A DNA stretch of 9,572 nt, taken from IMG/VR virus record IMGVR_UViG_2778261569_000018. One strand, 5' to 3'. Below, in pieces: positions 1 to 9,572 of the stretch. The first letter of the stretch is position 1, and every line of letters starts with the position of its first letter. The DNA comes from a virus. Lineage: Duplodnaviria; Heunggongvirae; Uroviricota; Caudoviricetes. The notes below the pieces were generated by a model. It was not told where the DNA came from. It worked only from the letters and a program-made list of their open reading frames with translations, and ran no database searches. The position numbers and the translations under genes were made by a program.

Positions 1-558
<558 letters not shown>

Positions 559-905
559 GACTGAAGATAATGTGATTGCTCCCGCCTGCTCAACACTCTG
601 TGATCGATACGAATCAGTTCGTACTTATCTACTAGGAAGTTGACTGTATCGGCTAAGGGGAATCCCGTTTTCAATATGTACCTTCATAACAGTGTCGTCA
701 ATGCGCTGCGTATCGTTAAGAGTCAGGCTGTAGTGTTTGTCCTGCAGGTATGTAACTAGGGGCTGTCAGACGGTTACAGAGGACTTCGCCACACGTTTTC
801 GGAATATAGGTAAAATTCTCATCGTCGGTTATTCTGCGAATAAAAGAAATTAATTGCGGACGGGTTTTTCGCGGTACGTCACTGTCGTATGGCAGCCAGC
901 GTATC
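559..905 (-). pseudogene. cbtA: CbtA/YkfI/YpjF-family toxin remnant, frameshifted and 3'-truncated by the IS insertion at 558
   Basis: Minus-strand translation of about 628-765 gives QPLVTYLQDKHYSLTLNDTQRIDDTVMKVHIENGIPL, then stop. A different frame from about 653 to 559 gives ADTVNFLVDKYELIRIDHRVLSRREQSHYLQ and runs straight into the IS end. This matches the central region of CbtA/YkfI toxins as recalled. The N-terminal region is not recognisable in any frame and there is no intact ORF of 60 aa or more. Confidence 0.55.
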
Positions 906-910
906 TTGGT

Positions 911-1319
911 TTATGCCCTGCTCCGTATTGTTATGTCGGTCGGTATGGCATAATGCAGTCCTAGCTTTTTCATCGCTGGCAAATGTACCAGTGCGAACCG
1001 AAGGGGGGATTCACCGATCATCCTTTTCGCATACAGCGTGACGGTCTGCTGATGACGGGGATTCAGTTCACCGCTGGTGAACATGAGTTCCAGTTGTTTC
1101 ATCAGCAGTGGAAAGGCTTGGTCCAGATGGTATGCATCCGCATCGCTGAACCGGCCTCTGATACCGGCGCGGTCTGCAAGGTAATGCAACTGATTGCCCT
1201 CCTGCACCAGACGGGCGCCAAAACGGGGTGTCACTGTCACGAACGGTGCAGGGCAGCCCCCACCAGGGGCGGTCGTGATTGTCGTCGGGATAATTTGTTT
1301 CATGGAGCGTGTCTGACAC
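911..1319 (-). pseudogene. cbeA: CbeA (YeeU)-like antitoxin with an internal frameshift
   Basis: N-terminus MSDTLHETNYPDDNHDRPWWGLPCTV is in one frame (GTG start at 1317-1319). The rest, TPRFGARLVQEGNQLHYLADRAGIRGRFSDADAYHLDQAFPLLMKQLELMFTSGELNPRHQQTVTLYAK..., is in a second frame. The shift maps to 1229-1244, where there is an apparent 10-nt insertion containing a GTGACA GTGACA tandem duplication. The open frame also runs past the expected C-terminus to 911. Confidence 0.7.
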
Positions 1320-1398
1320 GATAAAATCCTCACAGAAAATCGGTTAAGAACGGTCAGGTAATGTCGATAATTCTGCTCATCAGAATGCCCTTACTGAC

Positions 1399-1620
1399 TC
1401 AGTTCAGAGTGACGCTCATCAGCCGGACATACGGGCCAAAACTGTCCTTACGGCGTTCTGCAAACACGGCCAGCACACCGGGAATATTCTGCACTTCACG
1501 ACCGGTATACGCCTTAGCACTGCCGTGCCAGCGGTATTTGCCGGTACAGAACGGAAAAAGACGGGATGCAGGATGCTGTTGGTGAATACGCATGGCTTCA
1601 CCACGGGTGATGATTTTCAT
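1399..1620 (-). CDS. yeeT: YeeT/YkfH/YpjJ-family protein (DUF987)
   Basis: 73-aa ORF MKIITRGEAMRIHQQHP...VRLMSVTLN with ATG start, near-identical to my recollection of E. coli YeeT. Sits in the conserved position between the RadC-like gene and the antitoxin. Confidence 0.85.
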   Translation of the reverse strand: MKIITRGEAMRIHQQHPASRLFPFCTGKYRWHGSAKAYTGREVQNIPGVLAVFAERRKDSFGPYVRLMSVTLN

Positions 1621-1688
1621 GGTGTGATACCTCTGAAGACAGAAGATAAAAGTGAAAACAGGTGTGATGTGGTGGTGACGGTGACGGG

Positions 1689-2165
1689 TTAAAGCAGACC
1701 ATGTTCGGCAAAGGAGAAAACCTGGTTGCCACCAACTATCAGATGGTCCGGCACCCGGATATCCACCAGGCCCAGTGCCTGTACCAGACGTTCCGTGATA
1801 AGGCGGTCTGCCTTGCTGGGTGTGACTTCACCGGACGGGTGATTGTGTGCCAGCACCACGGCTGCGGCATTGTGGTACAGGGCGCGTTTAATCACTTCCC
1901 GGGGATGGACTTCCGTGCGGTTGATGGTGCCGGTGAAGAGGGTTTCACCGGCAATCAGCTGATTCTGGTTGTTCAGATACAGCACCCGGAATTCTTCACG
2001 CTCCAGTCCCGCCATGTTCAGAATCAGCCATTCCCGTGCCGTACGGGTGGAGGTGAAGGCCACGCCGGGTTCATGAAGATGGCGGTCCAGGGTTTTCAGG
2101 GCCCGCAGAATGAGGCTGCGCTCTCTGGTTGTCATTTCTCCGGGCAGAAAGGAAAGCTGCTGCAT
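1689..2165 (-). CDS. yeeS: RadC-like JAB-domain protein (YeeS/YkfG/YfjY family)
   Basis: 158-aa ORF with the JAB/MPN metal-binding motif HNHPSG and the conserved RadC-like C-terminus. ATG start at 2163-2165 preceded by AAGGGGG. Confidence 0.88.
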   Translation of the reverse strand: MQQLSFLPGEMTTRERSLILRALKTLDRHLHEPGVAFTSTRTAREWLILNMAGLEREEFRVLYLNNQNQLIAGETLFTGTINRTEVHPREVIKRALYHNAAAVVLAHNHPSGEVTPSKADRLITERLVQALGLVDIRVPDHLIVGGNQVFSFAEHGLL

Positions 2166-2180
2166 TGTTCCGGCCCCCTT

Positions 2181-2666
2181 TCAGTCGATGATGCGCATAA
2201 TGGCGTTGCATTCCGGATGCTGCAGGGCGTAATCCCGCAGCCGGTAATAATGGACCGTCATGGCATAACACTCCGTACGACAGGCATGATGGCTGTACGT
2301 CATCAGACAGGCGGCAATACCGGCGGCTTCCGGGCTCATTTCAGCGCGGTTACCGTTCATGGCATTGAACAGTACCCATGTTTCTCCATCATCTTCATCC
2401 GGTTCTGGAGCCATAAATGCCCCGCCGTTGTTCAGGGTGTACAGATTCCAGATACCACCACAGTAGTCTTCGCAAAGACGGTCCATCCAGCCGAAGATAC
2501 GGGGCTCCAGGGTCACCCACTGTGAAATGAGGCCAAAATGTTGCGGCCAGAAGCTGATGCGCTGTTCATCAGGGACGAGAGTAGCAACCAGCTGAGGTGG
2601 GTTATTCCCTGATGCAGCGGTTACGGAAACAGAAGGTGTGGTGGAATTATGCGTAACGGTTGTCAT
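2181..2666 (-). CDS. Antirestriction protein, KlcA/ArdB-like (YfjX/YafX family)
   Basis: 161-aa ORF; the region WNLYTLNNGGAFMAPEPDEDDGETWVLFN...MTYSHHA matches the island-borne antirestriction family as recalled. Conserved position directly upstream of the RadC-like gene. Confidence 0.8.
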   Translation of the reverse strand: MTTVTHNSTTPSVSVTAASGNNPPQLVATLVPDEQRISFWPQHFGLISQWVTLEPRIFGWMDRLCEDYCGGIWNLYTLNNGGAFMAPEPDEDDGETWVLFNAMNGNRAEMSPEAAGIAACLMTYSHHACRTECYAMTVHYYRLRDYALQHPECNAIMRIID

Positions 2667-2757
2667 GAGATTATTCCTTATAAAAAGTAAATGAATGGAA
2701 GAATGCCCGGGGGAAGGGACAGCCGTGAGTCAGGACTGCGCTTTCAGGGAAAAGGCA

Positions 2758-3576
2758 TCAGCGCATGCTCTCCAGCAGCGTTTCTGCCATCACCCACAAT
2801 GCCCGGTTGAGCTTAATGTCGGTATCGATGCTGTGAATGGCACGGGTGTGGATACGTTTTCCTTTTGCACTGCGACCGGAAAGCCCGCCTTTCAGCATAT
2901 TCTCCTGGATGGTCTGATAAGCACTCCACAGGTCCTTACCGTAATCCTCCCTGCGTCGTGGTGTCAGAATGTCGGCGGTGGTGACGGGCTGATGTTCGTC
3001 ACCATAACGGTAAGTCAGTGCCGCCTGTGCCAGCGCCTGGCGTGCCGGTGGCGGCAGGACCAGCGACTGCATGGCATCACGCTTCTCCTCTATCCGGTCA
3101 AACACACCCACCACCTCGTAAGCCCCTTCAATGACTCTGTCCACCACATTTCCCCGGTGCGGAACACGCACTTCCCCCAGAGACTGACCACAGACGCAGC
3201 CGTTCTGGCAGACGAATCTGAAGTAACCCGGCAGCATCTGGTAGCTGGAGGTACCGTCATGGGAGTTGAGCAGAATAATTTCAGGGACATGTTGTCCGTT
3301 TATCTCCCCGTCACGGCGCAGACGCAGCATGTGTTTGGTATACCCCCGGCGGCCCGGGTCACGTACGCGGGTCTGGCAGGCGAAGAATGGCTGAAAGCCT
3401 TCCCGCTGCAGGCTTTCCAGCACTGTGATGGTGGGGATGTACGAATACCGTTCACTGCGGGAGGTATGCCGGTCTTCCCCAAAAATGCTGGGAACATAGT
3501 GCATCAGTTCTTCATGGGTCAGTGGGCGGTCACGGCGTATCTGATTAATCCGTCCGAAGCGACTGGCTAATCGCAT
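2758..3576 (-). CDS. DUF932-domain protein (YfjQ/YafZ family)
   Basis: The ORF-track frame extends to 3636, but the family N-terminus MRLASRFGRINQIRRDRPL begins at the ATG at 3574-3576, which has AAGGAG 6 nt upstream. The upstream extension overlaps a terminator hairpin. 273 aa as annotated. Confidence 0.8.
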   Translation of the reverse strand: MRLASRFGRINQIRRDRPLTHEELMHYVPSIFGEDRHTSRSERYSYIPTITVLESLQREGFQPFFACQTRVRDPGRRGYTKHMLRLRRDGEINGQHVPEIILLNSHDGTSSYQMLPGYFRFVCQNGCVCGQSLGEVRVPHRGNVVDRVIEGAYEVVGVFDRIEEKRDAMQSLVLPPPARQALAQAALTYRYGDEHQPVTTADILTPRRREDYGKDLWSAYQTIQENMLKGGLSGRSAKGKRIHTRAIHSIDTDIKLNRALWVMAETLLESMR

Positions 3577-3600
3577 AATTAACTCCTTATCTGATAATGA

Positions 3601-3640
3601 AATAAAAGCAAAAAGGCCATGTCCCCGGAGGAACATGGCC
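3601..3640 (-). terminator. Rho-independent terminator downstream of the 312-aa secreted-protein gene
   Basis: Minus strand reads GGCCATGT-(10 nt loop)-ACATGGCC (8-bp perfect stem, 3615-3622 with 3633-3640) followed by TTTTTGCTTTTATT (3601-3614). Confidence 0.6.
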
Positions 3641-3665
3641 TGATGGAATATATTATTGCTGATGA

Positions 3666-4604
3666 TTAATGTTGCTGATTTTTCTCTTTAACTTTTGACC
3701 ATGAGGGGCGTCGGTTGCCGGAAAATTCCTTCTGCATTGACCAGTAACCAATCGGGAACTGCTTCACCAGCACCCCGTTGATACCAATATCGACGGACAG
3801 ATACTGACCGTTGTTGATGCTGCCCTTGCGGATGTACGCATCCGCACTGCAGGTGCCGGTATCATACTGCCGCCATGTTGCGGTATCGCGGGCGGCAACA
3901 TAAAAATCACCGAAAGCACAGCCCGTTGCTGACTTACGATTCAGAACGGCAACGTAATACTTAGTGTTGGCTATAATGGCGCAACTGCTGCTCTGACCGC
4001 CGCAGACCTGCCATAACGTTTTGCTGCTGTCACCCTTAAAGGTCCAGATAGTGTCTGCCGGTGCGCCGTCTGTATGTGTTACTGGCAATGCCGGAGCCTG
4101 CTGCACTGGTGTAACGTCGGGTACGTCGCGGCGTAATAGTCGTGCTTCAGCATCCCCGACATCGCCAAACATGTTTTCCTCTCCGCTGTTGTAATAAAAA
4201 CCGGCAATAACATGTTCTGAGGGGATATACAGTATTTTCAGATAATGGTCACCGCAATTACCCCGCTCACAGACAGACCCCAGCAGCCACTTCTCGTCAC
4301 CAACGACCACCGGAATTAATCCACTGTCAGGGCCGTTCATGGAGCCCTGTTTTCCCGTTAACCCGGTGAGTCCTGCTGACTTCAGCGCATCATCAAGGTC
4401 TTTCTTGAATACCGGGTCGGCATCGTAGATACTGCCCAGAAAGGGGCAGGAACCGTATCCGTTTTCATTATCACCAGCATCAGGATCACAGCGCATTGCA
4501 TCTGCTGCCGTTTTTGCGACACCGGCAGCGTAAACTCCGGTGGAAATAAAACAAAGCGAGGATATCAGTATTATCTGTTTTAATTTACGTAATACAAGAA
4601 ACAT
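3666..4604 (-). CDS. Secreted two-domain protein of unknown function; N-terminal domain carries an Ivy-like C-x4-C-G motif
   Basis: 312-aa ORF with ATG start. N-terminal signal peptide (hydrophobic core IILISSLCFISTGVYA, likely cleavage after VYA; no canonical lipobox). Cys-rich mature protein with VCERGNCGDHYLKILY motif. Terminator immediately downstream. Confidence 0.7.
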   Translation of the reverse strand: MFLVLRKLKQIILISSLCFISTGVYAAGVAKTAADAMRCDPDAGDNENGYGSCPFLGSIYDADPVFKKDLDDALKSAGLTGLTGKQGSMNGPDSGLIPVVVGDEKWLLGSVCERGNCGDHYLKILYIPSEHVIAGFYYNSGEENMFGDVGDAEARLLRRDVPDVTPVQQAPALPVTHTDGAPADTIWTFKGDSSKTLWQVCGGQSSSCAIIANTKYYVAVLNRKSATGCAFGDFYVAARDTATWRQYDTGTCSADAYIRKGSINNGQYLSVDIGINGVLVKQFPIGYWSMQKEFSGNRRPSWSKVKEKNQQH

Positions 4605-4632
4605 GATTATTTTTACTCCATCCTGTTTATAT

Positions 4633-4660
4633 AAAAGAAACGGGCTCCGTGAAGAGCCCT
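4633..4660 (-). terminator. Rho-independent terminator downstream of the 136-aa secreted-protein gene
   Basis: Minus strand reads GGGCTC-TTCACG-GAGCCC (6-bp GC stem, 4642-4647 with 4654-4659) followed by GTTTCTTTT (4633-4640). Confidence 0.5.
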
Positions 4661-4669
4661 GTAAAAAAT

Positions 4670-5080
4670 TTAAAAGTCAATGGTATTAAGACCAACATTC
4701 TTTTTGATGGAGGGATCGTAAATAACAACGGTAAGATGGTCTTTGTCTGAAGAACGGACAAACTTAGCGGTGGCCTCACCACTGCATGTTGCATGACGGT
4801 TATAATCCATCATTTTACCTTTGCTGGTAGCAAGATTGACAACGATGATATAAGGATCATAACAGGCCGAACCTCCCGGACTGCTCAGCAAGGCATATTT
4901 GCCATCATCAGAGACACCAATGAGGCTGCATATCCCGTCTTTTATATCCTCACTTCCGCACATCTGCTCACTTCCATCTTTCACATCAATCACAGTACGG
5001 GGTAATTTAACCTCTGTAGCATTAACTGATGCACTCAACAACAAACCTGAAACTATTAATGACAATATAAACGCTTTCAT
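4670..5080 (-). CDS. Small secreted protein of unknown function
   Basis: 136-aa ORF. Signal peptide MKAFILSLIVSGLLLSASVNA with predicted cleavage before TEV. Four Cys in the mature part. ATG start overlaps the primase stop (ATGA). Local sequence is visibly more AT-rich than its neighbours. Confidence 0.7.
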   Translation of the reverse strand: MKAFILSLIVSGLLLSASVNATEVKLPRTVIDVKDGSEQMCGSEDIKDGICSLIGVSDDGKYALLSSPGGSACYDPYIIVVNLATSKGKMMDYNRHATCSGEATAKFVRSSDKDHLTVVIYDPSIKKNVGLNTIDF

Positions 5081-5895
5081 ATACTCATCCTGTTTATCAT
5101 TACGGGGGATATATTCCTTTTATTCTGGGCGACATATAACAGGTTCCCGGCATCAATCGCCGCCACTGTCAGCGCCTCTGGACGAATTAAATGGGCAGAT
5201 AATGCCGTTGCCAGCCCTTCTGCGATTAAGATGCTCTGTGTTGTTTCTGGCGCGTTTATGGCGTGATATGCCCCCCGCTTTGCTGAACCTGTCAGGAGTC
5301 TTTTTTCACCATGTGATGTAATAGTCTGTGCTGCTGTGACTGCGCCGGATTTATCCACCAGCGCCAGCAACAGAGATCCATCGGGCAACACGGGGAATGT
5401 AAAATCACCTACCCCTTTCGCAACCAGATAATCAGATTTGCCGTTTACAGCCTTTCTGCGCATGTCATCAAACTGACGGGAAAACGTATCCCGTCTTTGT
5501 TGTTCGTCCTTCTCTGCCCTTTTCAGGCGCTCCTGTTCGCGTCGCTGGCGCTCGGTTTCCAGTTGTTCCCGTTTCTGGCTGGTGGCTTCTGGTGTTTCCG
5601 TTGTCCGGTAATCAATACCCAGAACATCAGCGGCAAGAAGCGCCGCCTCTGTTGTGTCGCAGTTATTTACGCGTTTAATTAAATCCAGCCCATCACCAGC
5701 GCCGCACTGATTACAGATGAAGCTACCGCGCCCGTTGTCATCGAACCGGAATCGATCTTTGCCCCCACATGCAGGGCAGGGAGCATGACGGCGCGGAGAG
5801 TCAGGGACATTTATGTTCAGGCAGCCCAGCACATGAGGCCAGTTGTTTTCAGACGCACTGATAACCTGACGGATAAGATCAATGTTTCGCATCAC
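5077..5895 (-). CDS. Primase-like protein: N-terminal zinc ribbon (primase-helicase type), coiled-coil linker, C-terminal Toprim-like region
   Basis: 272-aa ORF. CPACGGKDRFRFDDNGRGSFICNQCGAGDG is a four-Cys zinc ribbon of the kind found at the N-terminus of phage and plasmid primases. Charged linker QKREQLETERQRREQERLKRAEKDEQQRRD. C-terminal ILIAEGLATALS and AIDAG resemble Toprim acidic motifs. Confidence 0.75.
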   Translation of the reverse strand: MMRNIDLIRQVISASENNWPHVLGCLNINVPDSPRRHAPCPACGGKDRFRFDDNGRGSFICNQCGAGDGLDLIKRVNNCDTTEAALLAADVLGIDYRTTETPEATSQKREQLETERQRREQERLKRAEKDEQQRRDTFSRQFDDMRRKAVNGKSDYLVAKGVGDFTFPVLPDGSLLLALVDKSGAVTAAQTITSHGEKRLLTGSAKRGAYHAINAPETTQSILIAEGLATALSAHLIRPEALTVAAIDAGNLLYVAQNKRNISPVMINRMSI

Positions 5896-6250
5896 CGTAC
5901 CCCACGTGGTCTATAGCGTTTGCGATATGGCTAACCAGCATCTGCCACTTGGTTATTCCGTAATCAGTCAGCATGCCATCATTGTTTAGCCACATATCAA
6001 ATTCAGCGGTTGTCGCAAGTTTCCACTTATCGCCGTGGACAGTCCTCATTGCTGGGTACATGAATGCGCAAATCAGATCACAAACATCTGACGGCTTCAG
6101 AGATGTAGTAATGGTGCGTCCCTCTGGCGTCTGAATTGCCATTTTCTCTTCACCAGTAGAATGAAGGTTATGAATCCACACAGCACCAGCAATCTTTGCC
6201 ACCTGCTCTCCGATTGCGGAGCTAAGCGCCATTTCTGCATTTTCACGCAT
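5879..6250 (-). CDS. Hypothetical protein, 123 aa
   Basis: ATG start at 6248-6250. Its 3' end overlaps the primase start by 17 nt, and its start overlaps the upstream gene's stop (ATGCGTGA). Part of a same-strand, tightly packed operon. Confidence 0.6.
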   Translation of the reverse strand: MRENAEMALSSAIGEQVAKIAGAVWIHNLHSTGEEKMAIQTPEGRTITTSLKPSDVCDLICAFMYPAMRTVHGDKWKLATTAEFDMWLNNDGMLTDYGITKWQMLVSHIANAIDHVGYGDAKH

Positions 6251-6584
6251 GAGAACCTCCCGCTACAGTTGCGCCCATGTCATTAACCATGCTTTGCCAT
6301 ATCTCACGCCCGACGTCAGTCAATCCGTCCTTAGTGACGCAACGCTCAAGAAGCTCGATCCCCACGGTTTCCCACTGCGGGTAGAACACTTTCATGGCTG
6401 CCAGTGTGTAGCTATCGATCAGGCTGCGAACGCCTTTTACTCCATTAACGATTTCCACACGTACGGCCTCGCCGTCCGCATCAACCATGAAATAGTCCCC
6501 GCCGCTGGTGGAGGTAATGTGGTTATACAGTGCCGACGCATACTTATTTGCCAGCGCATTCAGTCGGAAATTTTTAGTAATCAT
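6243..6584 (-). CDS. Hypothetical protein, 113 aa
   Basis: ATG start at 6582-6584 with GAGGA upstream. Stop overlaps the next start in an 8-nt ATGCGTGA junction. Confidence 0.6.
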   Translation of the reverse strand: MITKNFRLNALANKYASALYNHITSTSGGDYFMVDADGEAVRVEIVNGVKGVRSLIDSYTLAAMKVFYPQWETVGIELLERCVTKDGLTDVGREIWQSMVNDMGATVAGGSHA

Positions 6585-6594
6585 GGCTCCATCC

Positions 6595-7197
6595 TCAGTG
6601 CGTCACTGGTTCCGCTGGCATGCCGTTTTCATTCAGTTCAGCTATAAAGCTGTTGTGAAGTTCAGCAAGCGTTTCACGACCAAATGGAGTCAGTGCTCCT
6701 TGTTCCACATCCATCATGGCTCTGTAGAAAATGATGGCGCGTTCTGTGCCAGACTCGATGCCAAAACGTTCTATCATCGCTCCCTCAATGTTGTTTGCCA
6801 TAGCGAGGCGCTCTGCTACTGGATACAGCGGCATGGCGACGATGCCGTTGGAATAAACAGCCACTTCGGAAGGATTGCCAGTATCATCAATGATGCTGAC
6901 AGTGCCGTTTTCCTCTCTCATTTCCAGCATGAATACTGTTGCGATCAGCCATCTCCACATAATGACGTTATGCTGTGATGTGTAATCGAAATATCCCTGG
7001 TTGCCGCCATCGGCAATAGCGAGATGTATTGACATACCTTCATCTGGTTTATCGTCATAATCCCCGGCATCCAGACGATTTACGGCATCAATATATGAGA
7101 CGGCCTCAACGCGTTCTGTCATGCCATCGTTGCTGCGGTACATGATGTTTACGCCGTCAGGCGTTGCTTCTGTATGGAAAGTTAAGAAATTATTCAT
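6595..7197 (-). CDS. Hypothetical protein, about 200 aa
   Basis: The ORF-track frame extends to 7302, but the ATG at 7195-7197 (MNNFLTFHTEATPDG...) has GAGG 6 nt upstream and forms the same 8-nt ATGAATAA overlap with the upstream stop seen elsewhere in the operon. Confidence 0.55.
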   Translation of the reverse strand: MNNFLTFHTEATPDGVNIMYRSNDGMTERVEAVSYIDAVNRLDAGDYDDKPDEGMSIHLAIADGGNQGYFDYTSQHNVIMWRWLIATVFMLEMREENGTVSIIDDTGNPSEVAVYSNGIVAMPLYPVAERLAMANNIEGAMIERFGIESGTERAIIFYRAMMDVEQGALTPFGRETLAELHNSFIAELNENGMPAEPVTH

Positions 7198-7411
7198 GTT
7201 TCGCCTCGCCTGAATGATTCTGTAACTCATATTTGCCCAACAATTCGTCCGCTTCCTGAATAGCTTCTGGTACGCCATTGAGCAGTGACATAACCGCGCC
7301 AATCATTAACTTGTCTCTGTTGCTGGGGCTGGCCCCTTCAAGCCAGAACCCTAAAACAGTCTGAACCTGTTCGATGCGACATTGCGCTTCAATGAGCTGG
7401 ATGTTGGTCAT
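7190..7411 (-). CDS. Hypothetical small protein, 73 aa
   Basis: ATG start at 7409-7411 overlapping the upstream stop (ATGA). Stop TAA at 7190-7192 overlaps the downstream start. Confidence 0.55.
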   Translation of the reverse strand: MTNIQLIEAQCRIEQVQTVLGFWLEGASPSNRDKLMIGAVMSLLNGVPEAIQEADELLGKYELQNHSGEAKHE

Positions 7412-7671
7412 TTCGCACTCTCCACATCGATTAAACCGATATCTATCAGGGAGGTAACTTTTTGTAGCCAGCTATTGATTACTGTCGCCTGTTCCCCGCC
7501 CACCGAGGGAACAATCTCATTCATCACATGAACCAGACCTGTGCGCGCTCTGGTAAGCCGTTCAGTCGCGCAATCTGCGGGAGTGAATGTGTCTGGATAT
7601 GGCTCTTCACGCCCCAGCAATGATTCAATTTCCAGCTCACACGGATGACGATAAATTAAGTTGATATTCAT
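7408..7671 (-). CDS. Hypothetical small protein, 87 aa
   Basis: ATG start at 7669-7671 overlapping the upstream stop (ATGA). Confidence 0.55.
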   Translation of the reverse strand: MNINLIYRHPCELEIESLLGREEPYPDTFTPADCATERLTRARTGLVHVMNEIVPSVGGEQATVINSWLQKVTSLIDIGLIDVESAK

Positions 7672-7862
7672 TTTTCACCCCCAAGAATTACCAGCTCGGC
7701 ACGGGCATCGTTAACCAAAGATGAGCACGCTTTAATCGCATCCACGACATCAGTAGCGTCCATTTCTTCAGCCGAAAGACTGACAGCAACCAGGACAGCC
7801 GCTGCTTGCTCGATTAATTGAAGTGCGGACGTAAGGCGAGGGGTATTAATTGAGTTATTCAT
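7668..7862 (-). CDS. Hypothetical small acidic protein, about 64 aa
   Basis: The ORF-track frame extends to 7919, but the ATG at 7860-7862 (MNNSINTPRL...) makes an 8-nt ATGAATAA overlap with the upstream gene's stop at 7855-7857. Confidence 0.5.
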   Translation of the reverse strand: MNNSINTPRLTSALQLIEQAAAVLVAVSLSAEEMDATDVVDAIKACSSLVNDARAELVILGGEK

Positions 7863-8073
7863 TGGTTGCCCCCGTTTTTCCTGGCATTTCGCCACCTTCC
7901 AGCAGGAAATGAACGTCACGAACGGCGAGATCCAATATCGCGAGTAACGCCTTCAGTCTTTCGTCTCGTGAGGGAGAGTTGCTCACCAGAATGTCGTTAA
8001 TCACTTCTGTCAGTGTGATGATCTGGCTTGTGCGTTCGAGGGGATCCATATGCACATCGTAGGTTTTAATCAT
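7855..8073 (-). CDS. Hypothetical small protein, 72 aa
   Basis: ATG at 8071-8073 (MIKTYDVHMDPLERTSQ...) preceded by GGAGGTG with a 4-6 nt spacer. It is the C-terminal part of the 355-aa ORF-track frame, but the strong internal RBS and the rare-codon run upstream argue for a separate gene. Confidence 0.55.
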   Translation of the reverse strand: MIKTYDVHMDPLERTSQIITLTEVINDILVSNSPSRDERLKALLAILDLAVRDVHFLLEGGEMPGKTGATNE

Positions 8074-8260
8074 GTGCCACCTCCATGCGGATACGACCAG
8101 CAAAAAAGCAGATGTGATCGCGCACCAGAGAACGGCGAGCATCGCGTTCAGACTCGGCAGCAATATGATGAATTTTGGCGGTAATTGTCGGGCAATCGCG
8201 GCGAACTGCGGCGATAATCCAGATAAATTGCGGTTTTTGGGTAGGGGTAGTAGCCAGCAT
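8066..8260 (-). CDS. Hypothetical small protein, 64 aa
   Basis: ATG at 8258-8260 ([22 protein letters not shown]...) preceded by AAGGAGG with a 7-nt spacer. Codon usage in this frame is good, while the alternative frame here has CTA CTA CCC CTA. Stop TAA at 8066-8068 overlaps the next start (ATGATTAA). The ORF-track start at 8407 is a TTG. Confidence 0.55.
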   Translation of the reverse strand: MLATTPTQKPQFIWIIAAVRRDCPTITAKIHHIAAESERDARRSLVRDHICFFAGRIRMEVAHD

Positions 8261-8922
8261 GTGGCAGCCTCCTTGTACTGGGAGTTCTTCCCACCACCGG
8301 AGCTGCGAAACTCGCTGGTGGTGGACTGAACAGAGTTCGCAGTACCGGCGTACAAGGAAACCGGCCAGCCTTTCGGCTGCCCTGTCCAGCCCACCATAAT
8401 TTTGCAAGCGACGCGGATTATAACCGCATCACTGAAAAAAGTGTGAGTCTGGCTAACGGCACAAAAAAAGACGCTCGGCGCGTCATGTGTCGCCTCGTAC
8501 ATTTCCGGGCTGCGAAACCCGGCACCCGTTTTATGAGGTGCCTTATAACCATAAACCGTGTTGCCGCATAACGGCAAGCTCTTTTTTATGGACTCCGAAA
8601 ACTCACTATTGGAAGCACCAGATGCACAATACATCGCGCTCATTTCGTTAACGTCGCGCGTGTGGACGAAGGTTTTTGTGGAGTCACTACGCGAGCAGAG
8701 AAAGCCATCTACGACCAGAAATTCTCTGGCGCAGCCGCCGACCTTCTCAACGCTAACACCATCGACCGTAATTTCTGACATAGTTAAGGCATCCGCTCCC
8801 ACCACCAGAAAATGATAAACTTTGCTTGTATCTGCTGTATTAATGCCAGACTTTGCTGTCATATTGCTGGATTTTGGCGACATACCAGCCAGTGAAAATA
8901 TCTTCTTCTGGACGGTTAGCAT
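8254..8922 (-). CDS. Hypothetical protein of about 220 aa, first gene of the operon; 3' end unresolved because the frame has no stop before 7855
   Basis: ATG at 8920-8922 preceded by GGAGG with a 7-nt spacer. Plausible codon usage from 8922 to about 8260. No family recognised. Confidence 0.4.
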
Positions 8923-9014
8923 TTGTTAACCTCCGCGAACTCCTTCATGAAGCGCGCCAGCGGTTGTACGCATGGCGATTGATACCCGTCGCGATAAAAC
9001 GTCACTCGGTTGTG

Positions 9015-9572
<558 letters not shown>

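Follow-up and report, generated by a model that had tools for sequence, protein, structure and literature searches.

What do two small secreted proteins, encoded side by side on a mobile island and labelled "hypothetical protein" in RefSeq, do in the cell envelope? This question is raised by a 9,572-nucleotide stretch of DNA filed under Caudoviricetes (IMG/VR record IMGVR_UViG_2778261569_000018; hereafter, the window), the minus strand of which carries two intact open reading frames (ORFs), one encoding 136 amino acids (aa) (4670-5080) and one encoding 312 aa (3666-4604). We found that, in the secreted 312-aa protein, a divergent Ivy-family domain is fused to a four-cysteine beta domain of the family phrog_5248; the 136-aa protein, also secreted, is a free-standing beta protein belonging to the sister family phrog_8968. 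The two genes form a periplasmic module that travels on mobile elements.

Both proteins begin with a Sec-signal-like N terminus, which reads MKAFILSLIVSGLLLSASVNA/TE in the 136-aa protein (...SVNA/TE) and MFLVLRKLKQIILISSLCFISTGVYA/AG in the 312-aa protein (...GVYA/AG), where the slash marks the cleavage site predicted from sequence. Hydropathy averaged over 11 residues peaks at 2.75 and 2.59, respectively, and a hydropathy scan detected no hydrophobic segment beyond the signal peptide in either protein. The mature 136-aa protein contains four cysteines and the mature 312-aa protein contains eight, all of which are invariant or nearly so among relatives. A lipoprotein reading of the 312-aa protein was rejected because Cys18 of its signal peptide neither lies in a lipobox nor is conserved. 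A GC-rich hairpin and a T-run lie 3' of each gene, with folding energies of -12.5 kcal/mol (z = -3.9) for the hairpin after the 136-aa gene (4659-4642) and -24.8 kcal/mol (z = -5.1) for that after the 312-aa gene (3641-3614). Seven islands from four genera, found in E. coli, Salmonella, Klebsiella, and two metagenome bins, retain the intergenic hairpin, and no compensatory changes were found across them. A sigma-70-like promoter match before the 312-aa gene is weak: it agrees at 9 of 12 positions, and such sites are no more numerous than expected from shuffled sequence.

Both genes are under strong purifying selection. Over seven islands, the ratio of nonsynonymous to synonymous substitution rates (dN/dS) was 0.095 for the mature 136-aa protein, 0.155 for the Ivy domain, and 0.088 for the C-terminal domain of the 312-aa protein, and it was highest in the linker between these two domains (0.41). 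Values of 0.09 to 0.16 indicate that these are real functional genes and not chance ORFs. Both are also 99.6 to 100% conserved across O111, O157, and other lineages.

The family assignment of the 312-aa protein required indirect evidence. At default thresholds, neither protein matched any Pfam or NCBIfam family, and direct sequence searches of the PDB returned only chance-level matches (ferredoxin, talin). In a relaxed scan, the 312-aa protein matched the Pfam Ivy family (PF08816) over residues 98 to 140 with an E value of 0.042 (14.4 bits). The same family was matched at an E value of 0.01 or lower by 24 of 29 aligned relatives (best E value, 4.2e-10), some of which exceed the family threshold with scores of 25.9 and 29.5 bits, and a profile of the 312-aa family matched Ivy in the PDB at an E value of 0.09. 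Several relatives are named "Ivy family c-type lysozyme inhibitor" by NCBI. Because the relatives match Ivy while the window protein stays below threshold, membership follows from transitive homology and not from a direct score. In a model built from the alignment, the N-terminal domain was confidently predicted and adopts the Ivy alpha/beta fold, while residues 162 to 179 had a predicted local distance difference test (pLDDT) score below 50. Two cysteines of this domain, C112 (invariant) and C117 (nearly invariant), align with the cysteines of the CKPHDC loop in the Ivy structures 1GPQ and 1XS0.

The Ivy scaffold inhibits peptidoglycan glycosidases of the lysozyme fold: it inserts a disulfide-bonded loop into the active-site cleft, and in the Ivy-lysozyme complex the loop histidine reaches the lysozyme active site. 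Ivy blocks c-type lysozyme through this loop; its sequence CKPHDC is essential for inhibition and is strictly conserved in 30 members, while 5 others have CExxDxC (PMC4262234). The loop of the 312-aa protein, CERGNC, conforms to neither CKPHDC nor CExxDxC and lacks the active-site histidine; the consensus of its clade is CE-x-[GN]-N-C (CE-x-[GNS]-[NS]-C in all relatives aligned). The 312-aa protein differs from Ivy (PF08816; YkfE; PA3902; PDB codes 1GPQ, 1XS0, 1UUZ, and 4PS6) in further respects. It has an extra conserved cysteine pair (C39/C53), and its Ivy-like domain is fused through a proline-rich linker to a second conserved domain. In addition, Ivy is a core Rcs-regulated gene, whereas the 312-aa protein is encoded on a mobile island together with a partner gene.

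The second domain (residues 182 to 300) contains four invariant cysteines and yielded no Pfam family and no confident PDB match. Residues 199 to 258 matched phrog_5248 in the PHROGs database (E value, 0.0027). The domain also occurs alone behind a signal peptide in Proteus (e.g., Proteus mirabilis), Providencia, Morganella, Citrobacter, and Enterobacter, and the stand-alone Proteus form matched phrog_5248 over its full length (E value, 7.6e-9). Matches to DUF7908 in three relatives of the 312-aa protein fall on the low-complexity linker and were dismissed.

The 136-aa protein matched phrog_8968 over nearly its entire length (residues 1 to 134 on profile positions 1 to 134 of 135; E value, 2.9e-38). 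Its family is very small, with 25 close matches in a word-indexed search and only 17 representatives among 1.84 billion proteins in an exhaustive search; multirepeat giant proteins that the latter also returned were set aside, as they look like composition matches to "SSNPGG"-type repeats. When distant members were added to the alignment, the mature protein was modelled with a pLDDT above 90 as an all-beta domain of eight strands. Among known inhibitors, MliC/PliC, PliG, and PliI are likewise small exported beta-rich proteins of Gram-negative bacteria, and the motifs SPGGSACY and TSKG of the 136-aa protein are superficially similar to theirs. An MliC/PliC reading (PF09864) was rejected because there is no profile match and the predicted fold differs. 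A search for a TolB/PD40-type beta-propeller found neither a repeat profile match nor a closed propeller. The initial annotation had described the two ORFs as cysteine-rich signal-peptide proteins, each with its own terminator, and had recognized neither as a member of a described family. Its ORFs, signal sequences, cysteines, and hairpins were confirmed; the statement about families did not hold, since the 312-aa protein has an N-terminal domain of the Ivy family and both proteins fall into existing PHROG families of unknown function.

Several comparisons connect the two beta domains to each other. Cross-searches with hidden Markov models (HMMs) rank the proteins as a chain running from the 136-aa family through proteins of the types of gp085 and gp083 of the Salmonella jumbo phage SPN3US to the C-terminal domain, and an HMM of the C-terminal domain retrieves gp083-type proteins at E values of 3.8e-5 to 3e-3. 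Alignment of the C-terminal domain with the enlarged 136-aa family by hhalign gave a P value of 0.0019 over 79 columns, a score reached by 1 of 200 column shuffles; three of four cysteines were aligned there, and all four in an earlier, weaker run. The order of secondary-structure elements is identical in the models of the two domains. The 136-aa protein and the C-terminal domain are thus probably remote paralogues by common ancestry, although this is not proven.

The same families occur in jumbo phages. Using tblastn, we found homologues of the 136-aa protein at 43 to 48% identity in 48 jumbo-phage records, including SPN3US and its relatives, Erwinia phages Asesino and phiEaH2, and Proteus phage 7; the gp084 proteins of the SPN3US group share 43 to 44% identity with the 136-aa protein, and those of related Erwinia phages share up to 48%. 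In SPN3US, the homologue is gp084, which lies within a run of four small proteins with signal peptides, gp086, gp085, gp084, and gp083 (locus L041, 3539-5248; locus L007, 5001-6699). Like the window proteins, gp084 and gp083 are signal-peptide proteins with four conserved cysteines. Because gp083 is of the phrog_5248 type, the phage order gp084-gp083 equals the window order of the 136-aa protein followed by the fusion of Ivy and C-terminal domains. The phage gp083-like protein stands alone, whereas its counterpart in the window carries an N-terminal Ivy domain, and the phage array holds the further paralogues gp085 and gp086. The four-cysteine pattern is shared by gp085, gp084, and gp083, which form an array of secreted paralogues in this lytic jumbo phage, and gp086 has a possible lipobox (LAAC).

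Searching the phage collection by tblastn returned no match for the 312-aa protein or for the stand-alone Ivy-like protein described below. Ivy-like, gp084-like, and gp083-like genes do stand in a row on a replicon of 222 kb (NZ_CP173450.1; 221,873 bp; locus L010) that was deposited as an E. coli plasmid. Its gene order is SPN3US-like where examined, and it is probably a jumbo-phage genome. Metagenome contigs of 220 kb match it (loci L003 to L006), and a 129-aa protein of L003 matched phrog_5248 with an E value of 4.6e-31. Given the negative search of the phage collection, the presence of an Ivy-like gene in a jumbo-phage-like genome is documented by this one replicon family. Locus L003 also encodes four consecutive unannotated proteins of 185 to 375 aa (483-3887). 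All four end in the motif ...GW..V...G.QLLF.A and may therefore be a family of tandem paralogues.

We then considered how consistently the parts of the module travel together. The 136-aa and 312-aa genes are adjacent in at least 75 of 5,426 complete E. coli genomes (77 and 78 in separate counts) and also in Salmonella and Klebsiella. In a survey of C-terminal-domain loci, for which one genome per species was used and relatives were found with the alignment of the 312-aa family, we obtained 26 species loci. In 25 of them, DUF932 is encoded no more than about 2 kb away; the remaining locus, from Proteus hauseri, has only a weak DUF932 match some 4.6 kb away. An antirestriction gene is present in 24 of the 26. 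The full Ivy fusion occurs in six loci, four of which have an adjoining 136-aa gene, while the C-terminal domain occurs alone in the other 20, none of which has a 136-family gene within 7 kb. One other island carries the Ivy fusion without the 136-aa gene. In Morganellaceae, as in Proteus mirabilis ATCC 29906 (locus L022, 5444-7953), the gene for the stand-alone domain comes after those for a WYL-type regulator and a small polytopic membrane protein and before that for another, unrelated signal-peptide protein of 148 aa; the gene content of the island matches that of the E. coli islands, but the order differs.

A paralogous pair is far more common: a stand-alone Ivy-like gene followed by a 136-like gene lies directly before DUF932 in 1,889 of 5,426 complete E. 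coli genomes (35%, versus about 1.4% for the window version), including O157:H7. This pair, found in CP4-44-like islands, consists of WP_000775497.1 (Ivy-like, loop CKANTC) and WP_000846711.1 (136 aa), which share 31% identity with the Ivy domain of the window (E value, 2e-21) and 32% identity with its 136-aa protein (E value, 6e-15), respectively. Like the window pair, it directly precedes a DUF932, antirestriction, and RadC block; unlike the window pair, it has the reverse gene order, no C-terminal beta domain, and a different loop. A gene of E. coli O121 that encodes an Ivy-like domain with the loop CKANTC raised T7 plating when it was knocked down (bioRxiv 10.1101/2024.04.20.590424). Since the two loops are identical, this gene, Hypo_04657, is probably WP_000775497.1 or a protein like it. 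The true start of the common Ivy-like gene is uncertain: RefSeq gives a protein of 225 to 227 aa with a 65-residue N-terminal extension (locus L009, 8813-9490; locus L042, 5809-6492), whereas an internal methionine gives a classical signal peptide and a protein of 160 to 162 aa. The extension could account for the "helical second domain" that the preprint ascribes to Hypo_04657. Before the common pair, CP4-44-like islands carry GTPase, dynamin-family, RdcB-family, and patatin-like phospholipase genes (L009, 3222-8677; L042, 2952-5673), in the place occupied by flu and yeeR in K-12. Collectively, the Ivy-like, 136-like, and C-terminal-domain modules are linked repeatedly, but not obligatorily, across unrelated mobile elements.

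The surroundings of the pair in the window proved to be composite. Positions 4600 to 9000 are 100% identical to E. coli O111:H8 TW05614, and positions 534 to 5127 are 99.9% identical to O111:H- 11128. Physically, the pair sits between a primase ORF (5077-5895) and DUF932 (2758-3576). The primase ORF is marked incomplete by RefSeq in TW05614, and a full-length, 918-aa version with TOPRIM and DUF927 domains is present in Combat13F7. The intact primase gene is 100% identical to the window up to about position 5125, in elements that lack any such pair, and homology to intact CP4-like islands is limited to 2754-5097 (blastn edges at 5097 in ECONIH5 and 5091 in PK5074). The junction of the two elements therefore maps to about 5097-5127, and the primase ORF is a pseudogene that derives from another integrative element and has lost most of its length. 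In intact islands, the pair is preceded by a GTPase gene, a gene for a WYL/helix-turn-helix (HTH) regulator, and two tiny ORFs, and it is colinear with DUF932 in islands at tRNA-Thr, tRNA-Asp, and tRNA-Ile. These homology limits and the order in intact islands place the pair with the DUF932, antirestriction, and RadC block. It was joined secondarily to the fragment of the other element, in a region also hit by IS1203. The initial annotation had seen the pair as occupants of a variable slot between primase and a conserved DUF932 back end; the adjacency to primase is a truncation junction, and the pair does not behave as cargo that varies independently of the back end; in 25 of 26 species loci, the gene with the C-terminal domain lies close to DUF932.

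That annotation was also right that the 136-aa gene is AT rich (G+C content of 0.414, versus 0.504 for the 312-aa gene and 0.51 to 0.57 for the neighbors). The separate acquisition proposed on this ground is not supported: the two genes adjoin across E. coli, Salmonella, and Klebsiella as counted above, and the low G+C content recurs in other islands and in phage gp084 relative to gp083, making it a trait of the 136-aa family. Synonymous sites of the 136-aa gene are more diverged than those of the 312-aa gene in four of six comparisons between islands (about threefold versus ECONIH5), so some exchange of alleles is possible. The frame of the primase pseudogene continues across the junction of the two elements until its stop codon overlaps the start codon of the 136-aa gene (ATGA); thus, translation of the 136-aa gene may now be coupled to that of a gene fragment. 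The features of the locus are listed in Table 1.

Table 1. Features of the two-gene module and its immediate neighbors in the window
Feature	Position	Strand	Remark
136-aa secreted protein gene	4670..5080	-	phrog_8968; homologue of jumbo-phage SPN3US gp084
Signal peptide of 136-aa protein, residues 1-21	5018-5080	-	Sec-like
Mature 4-Cys all-beta domain of 136-aa protein	residues 22-136	-	
5' edge of conserved module, with AGGA ribosome-binding site of 136-aa gene	5081..5097	-	blastn boundaries
Terminator-like hairpin (7 bp, 5 GC pairs) and T-run, 3' of 136-aa gene	4632..4659	-	
Weak sigma-70-like promoter match before 312-aa gene (TTTATA, 18-nt spacer, AATAAT)	4606..4635	-	
Signal peptide of 312-aa protein, residues 1-26, predicted cleavage after VYA	4527..4604	-	N terminus conserved in relatives
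Ivy-fold domain of 312-aa protein (predicted), residues 27-160	4125..4526	-	
Disulfide loop C112-E-R-G-N-C117 in Ivy-fold domain	4254-4271	-	aligns with Ivy inhibitory loop CKPHDC
Pro/Ala-rich linker, residues 161-181	4062..4124	-	low model confidence, variable length in alignment
C-terminal 4-Cys beta domain of 312-aa protein, residues 182-300	3705..4061	-	phrog_5248 (SPN3US gp083 family)
Terminator-like hairpin (12 bp) and T-run, 3' of 312-aa gene	3614..3641	-	
Context: truncated primase pseudogene (zinc ribbon and start of Toprim)	5077..5895	-	Pfam
Context: DUF932 gene, first of DUF932, antirestriction, RadC, DUF987, CbeA block	2758..3576	-	

Several other features of the window were observed. 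Two 100% identical ends of the IS3-family insertion sequence IS1203 bracket it in inverted orientation (1-558 and 9013-9572), and in O111:H- 11128, an IS1203 copy is inserted exactly at the equivalent of window position 5127, replacing the primase-side fragment. The toxin-antitoxin end next to the insertion sequence (534-1333) is decayed, with a frameshifted CbeA/YeeU antitoxin and only fragments of the CbtA toxin. An ORF at 8066-8407 matches an Icd-like cell-division-inhibitor domain (NCBIfam NF033153; E value, 3.7e-19) and lies wholly inside, and out of frame with, a 355-aa ORF (7855-8922) that RefSeq calls an "ash family protein"; this is either an overlapping gene pair or a misannotation.

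What, then, might the pair do? Our best guess, which we put forward tentatively and with somewhat less than even confidence, is that it serves as a periplasmic inhibitor of an invader's peptidoglycan glycosidase and works like Spackle of phage T4. Once exported by Sec and disulfide bonded, the Ivy-like domain would bind and block a lysozyme-fold enzyme brought into the periplasm by an invader. The likeliest target would be a virion-associated lytic transglycosylase or lysozyme used by phages to cross the cell wall, and the efficiency of infection would be lowered, as when Spackle blocks the T4 gp5 tail lysozyme. The altered loop without a histidine implies that the target is not vertebrate c-type lysozyme. 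The fused and the free beta domain might provide a second binding or targeting module, which is the least certain step.

Precedents favor such an inhibitor of an invader's enzyme. In addition to its loop-mediated action on lysozyme, Ivy inhibits the bacterial lytic transglycosylase MltB in vitro, and a role for lysozyme inhibitors in regulating lytic transglycosylases has been proposed (PMC10139938, PMC10746161). T4 Spackle (gp61.3) is a phage-encoded periplasmic protein that excludes superinfecting phage by inhibiting the gp5 tail lysozyme (PMC7677548), and the window proteins may share this mode, in which a small exported protein of a mobile element acts against a virion-borne wall-degrading enzyme. 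Spackle differs in having no sequence or fold relation to them and in acting allosterically on a basic patch rather than through a plug loop (PMC7677548, PMC7650644); its chain was not among the listed PDB sequence or structure matches of the 136-aa and 312-aa proteins. The T7 phenotype in the preprint points in the same direction. That these are exported island cargo, as first annotated, is supported, and of the roles then suggested, hydrolase inhibition or superinfection exclusion is the guess that the Ivy fold, the jumbo-phage homologues, and the T7-linked paralogue now favor.

Other observations weigh against a phage-directed inhibitor. The 14.4-bit score of the 312-aa protein falls under the Pfam Ivy gathering score of 21, inhibitor activity in this clade is predicted from comparisons of fold and sequence, and with the loop histidine absent, the inhibitor function may be lost or changed. 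The T7 phenotype belongs to a paralogue with about 31% identity and was reported in a preprint that is not peer reviewed, using CRISPR interference (CRISPRi) that is polar on downstream genes (bioRxiv 10.1101/2024.04.20.590424), and the preprint gene is tied to the common pair by the loop motif only. The DUF932, antirestriction, and RadC neighbors are genes for element establishment and not defense genes, and a search of PADLOC-DB 2.0 with both proteins and seven related ones found no family at an E value of 0.01 or lower. Moreover, the beta domains have no known function, and a lytic jumbo phage could use such proteins otherwise, for example to control its own lysis.

Alternative roles share some of this evidence. 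The Ivy fold, the NCBI name given to relatives, and the enteric hosts, many of them from cattle and humans, would suit a classical Ivy that guards against animal c-type lysozyme in the gut, making the 312-aa protein an accessory colonization factor of Shiga toxin-producing E. coli (STEC) and Salmonella and the 136-aa protein an unrelated neighbor. We consider this unlikely, since the required CKPHDC loop with its histidine is replaced, parts of the module occur in lytic jumbo phages that gain nothing from resistance to vertebrate lysozyme, and the repeated linkage with the 136-aa and C-terminal-domain families argues against an unrelated neighbor. It also seems unlikely that the pair provides orphan immunity, neutralizing peptidoglycan-degrading toxins (for example, type VI muramidase effectors or pesticin-like lysozyme bacteriocins) that competitors deliver to the periplasm. 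Immunity-gene islands exist, the proteins are small, periplasmic, disulfide bonded, island borne, and diversified into paralogues, and an Ivy scaffold suits a muramidase target; however, none of the loci examined has a toxin gene or a type VI component close by, interbacterial immunity would not lead one to expect such proteins in lytic jumbo phages, and dN/dS values taken over whole domains give no hint of an arms race.

Alternatively, the pair might restrain wall-cutting enzymes of the cell or of the element itself, either endogenous lytic transglycosylases or those that time a phage's own lysis, to the benefit of the mobile element during transfer, induction, or infection. The reported inhibition of MltB and the proposed regulatory role of such inhibitors fit this idea, as do the tight linkage to establishment genes, the position of the pair downstream of a WYL/HTH regulator, and the presence in lytic jumbo phages. 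Yet the islands encode neither a transfer apparatus nor a wall hydrolase, and Ivy's physiological role toward lytic transglycosylases is itself unproven, which leaves this option rather improbable. Finally, the pair could be decaying cargo without a current function in this strain, given that the O111 island is heavily eroded (truncated primase, frameshifted CbeA, CbtA fragments, and IS1203 copies). This is very improbable, because both reading frames are intact and nearly invariant across lineages and are under the purifying selection described above.

A broader form of the inhibitor of invading phages can be imagined, which we regard as possible but doubtful. The Ivy-like, gp084-like, and gp083-like proteins might constitute a single, previously undescribed three-part periplasmic system common to nucleus-forming jumbo phages and enterobacterial islands. 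The beta domains, perhaps paired as a heterodimer of the 136-aa protein and the C-terminal domain, would then represent a novel type of binding module that cooperates with the Ivy-like plug to capture and inactivate the wall-piercing enzymes of incoming phages. If true, this would be the most widespread envelope-level superinfection exclusion in E. coli, present in about one-third of genomes and annotated only as hypothetical proteins.

To our knowledge, phage exclusion at the envelope is far less charted than cytoplasmic defense, and few periplasmic proteins are known to inhibit the wall-degrading enzymes of phages, T4 Spackle being the main example. The analysis links a rare two-gene module of O111, O157, and other E. 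coli to a paralogous pair in about 35% of complete E. coli genomes and to the secreted array of SPN3US-type phages. The novelty lies in an Ivy-family scaffold whose loop and fused domain are new and whose partner gene is common to jumbo phages, and the assignment of part of the module to the Ivy inhibitor fold makes two hypothetical proteins testable. It also offers a possible explanation for an unexplained T7 result in a genome-wide screen. Even if the targets are host lysozyme or competitor toxins, the module would broaden the range of targets attributed to the Ivy scaffold and provide a function for two PHROG families.

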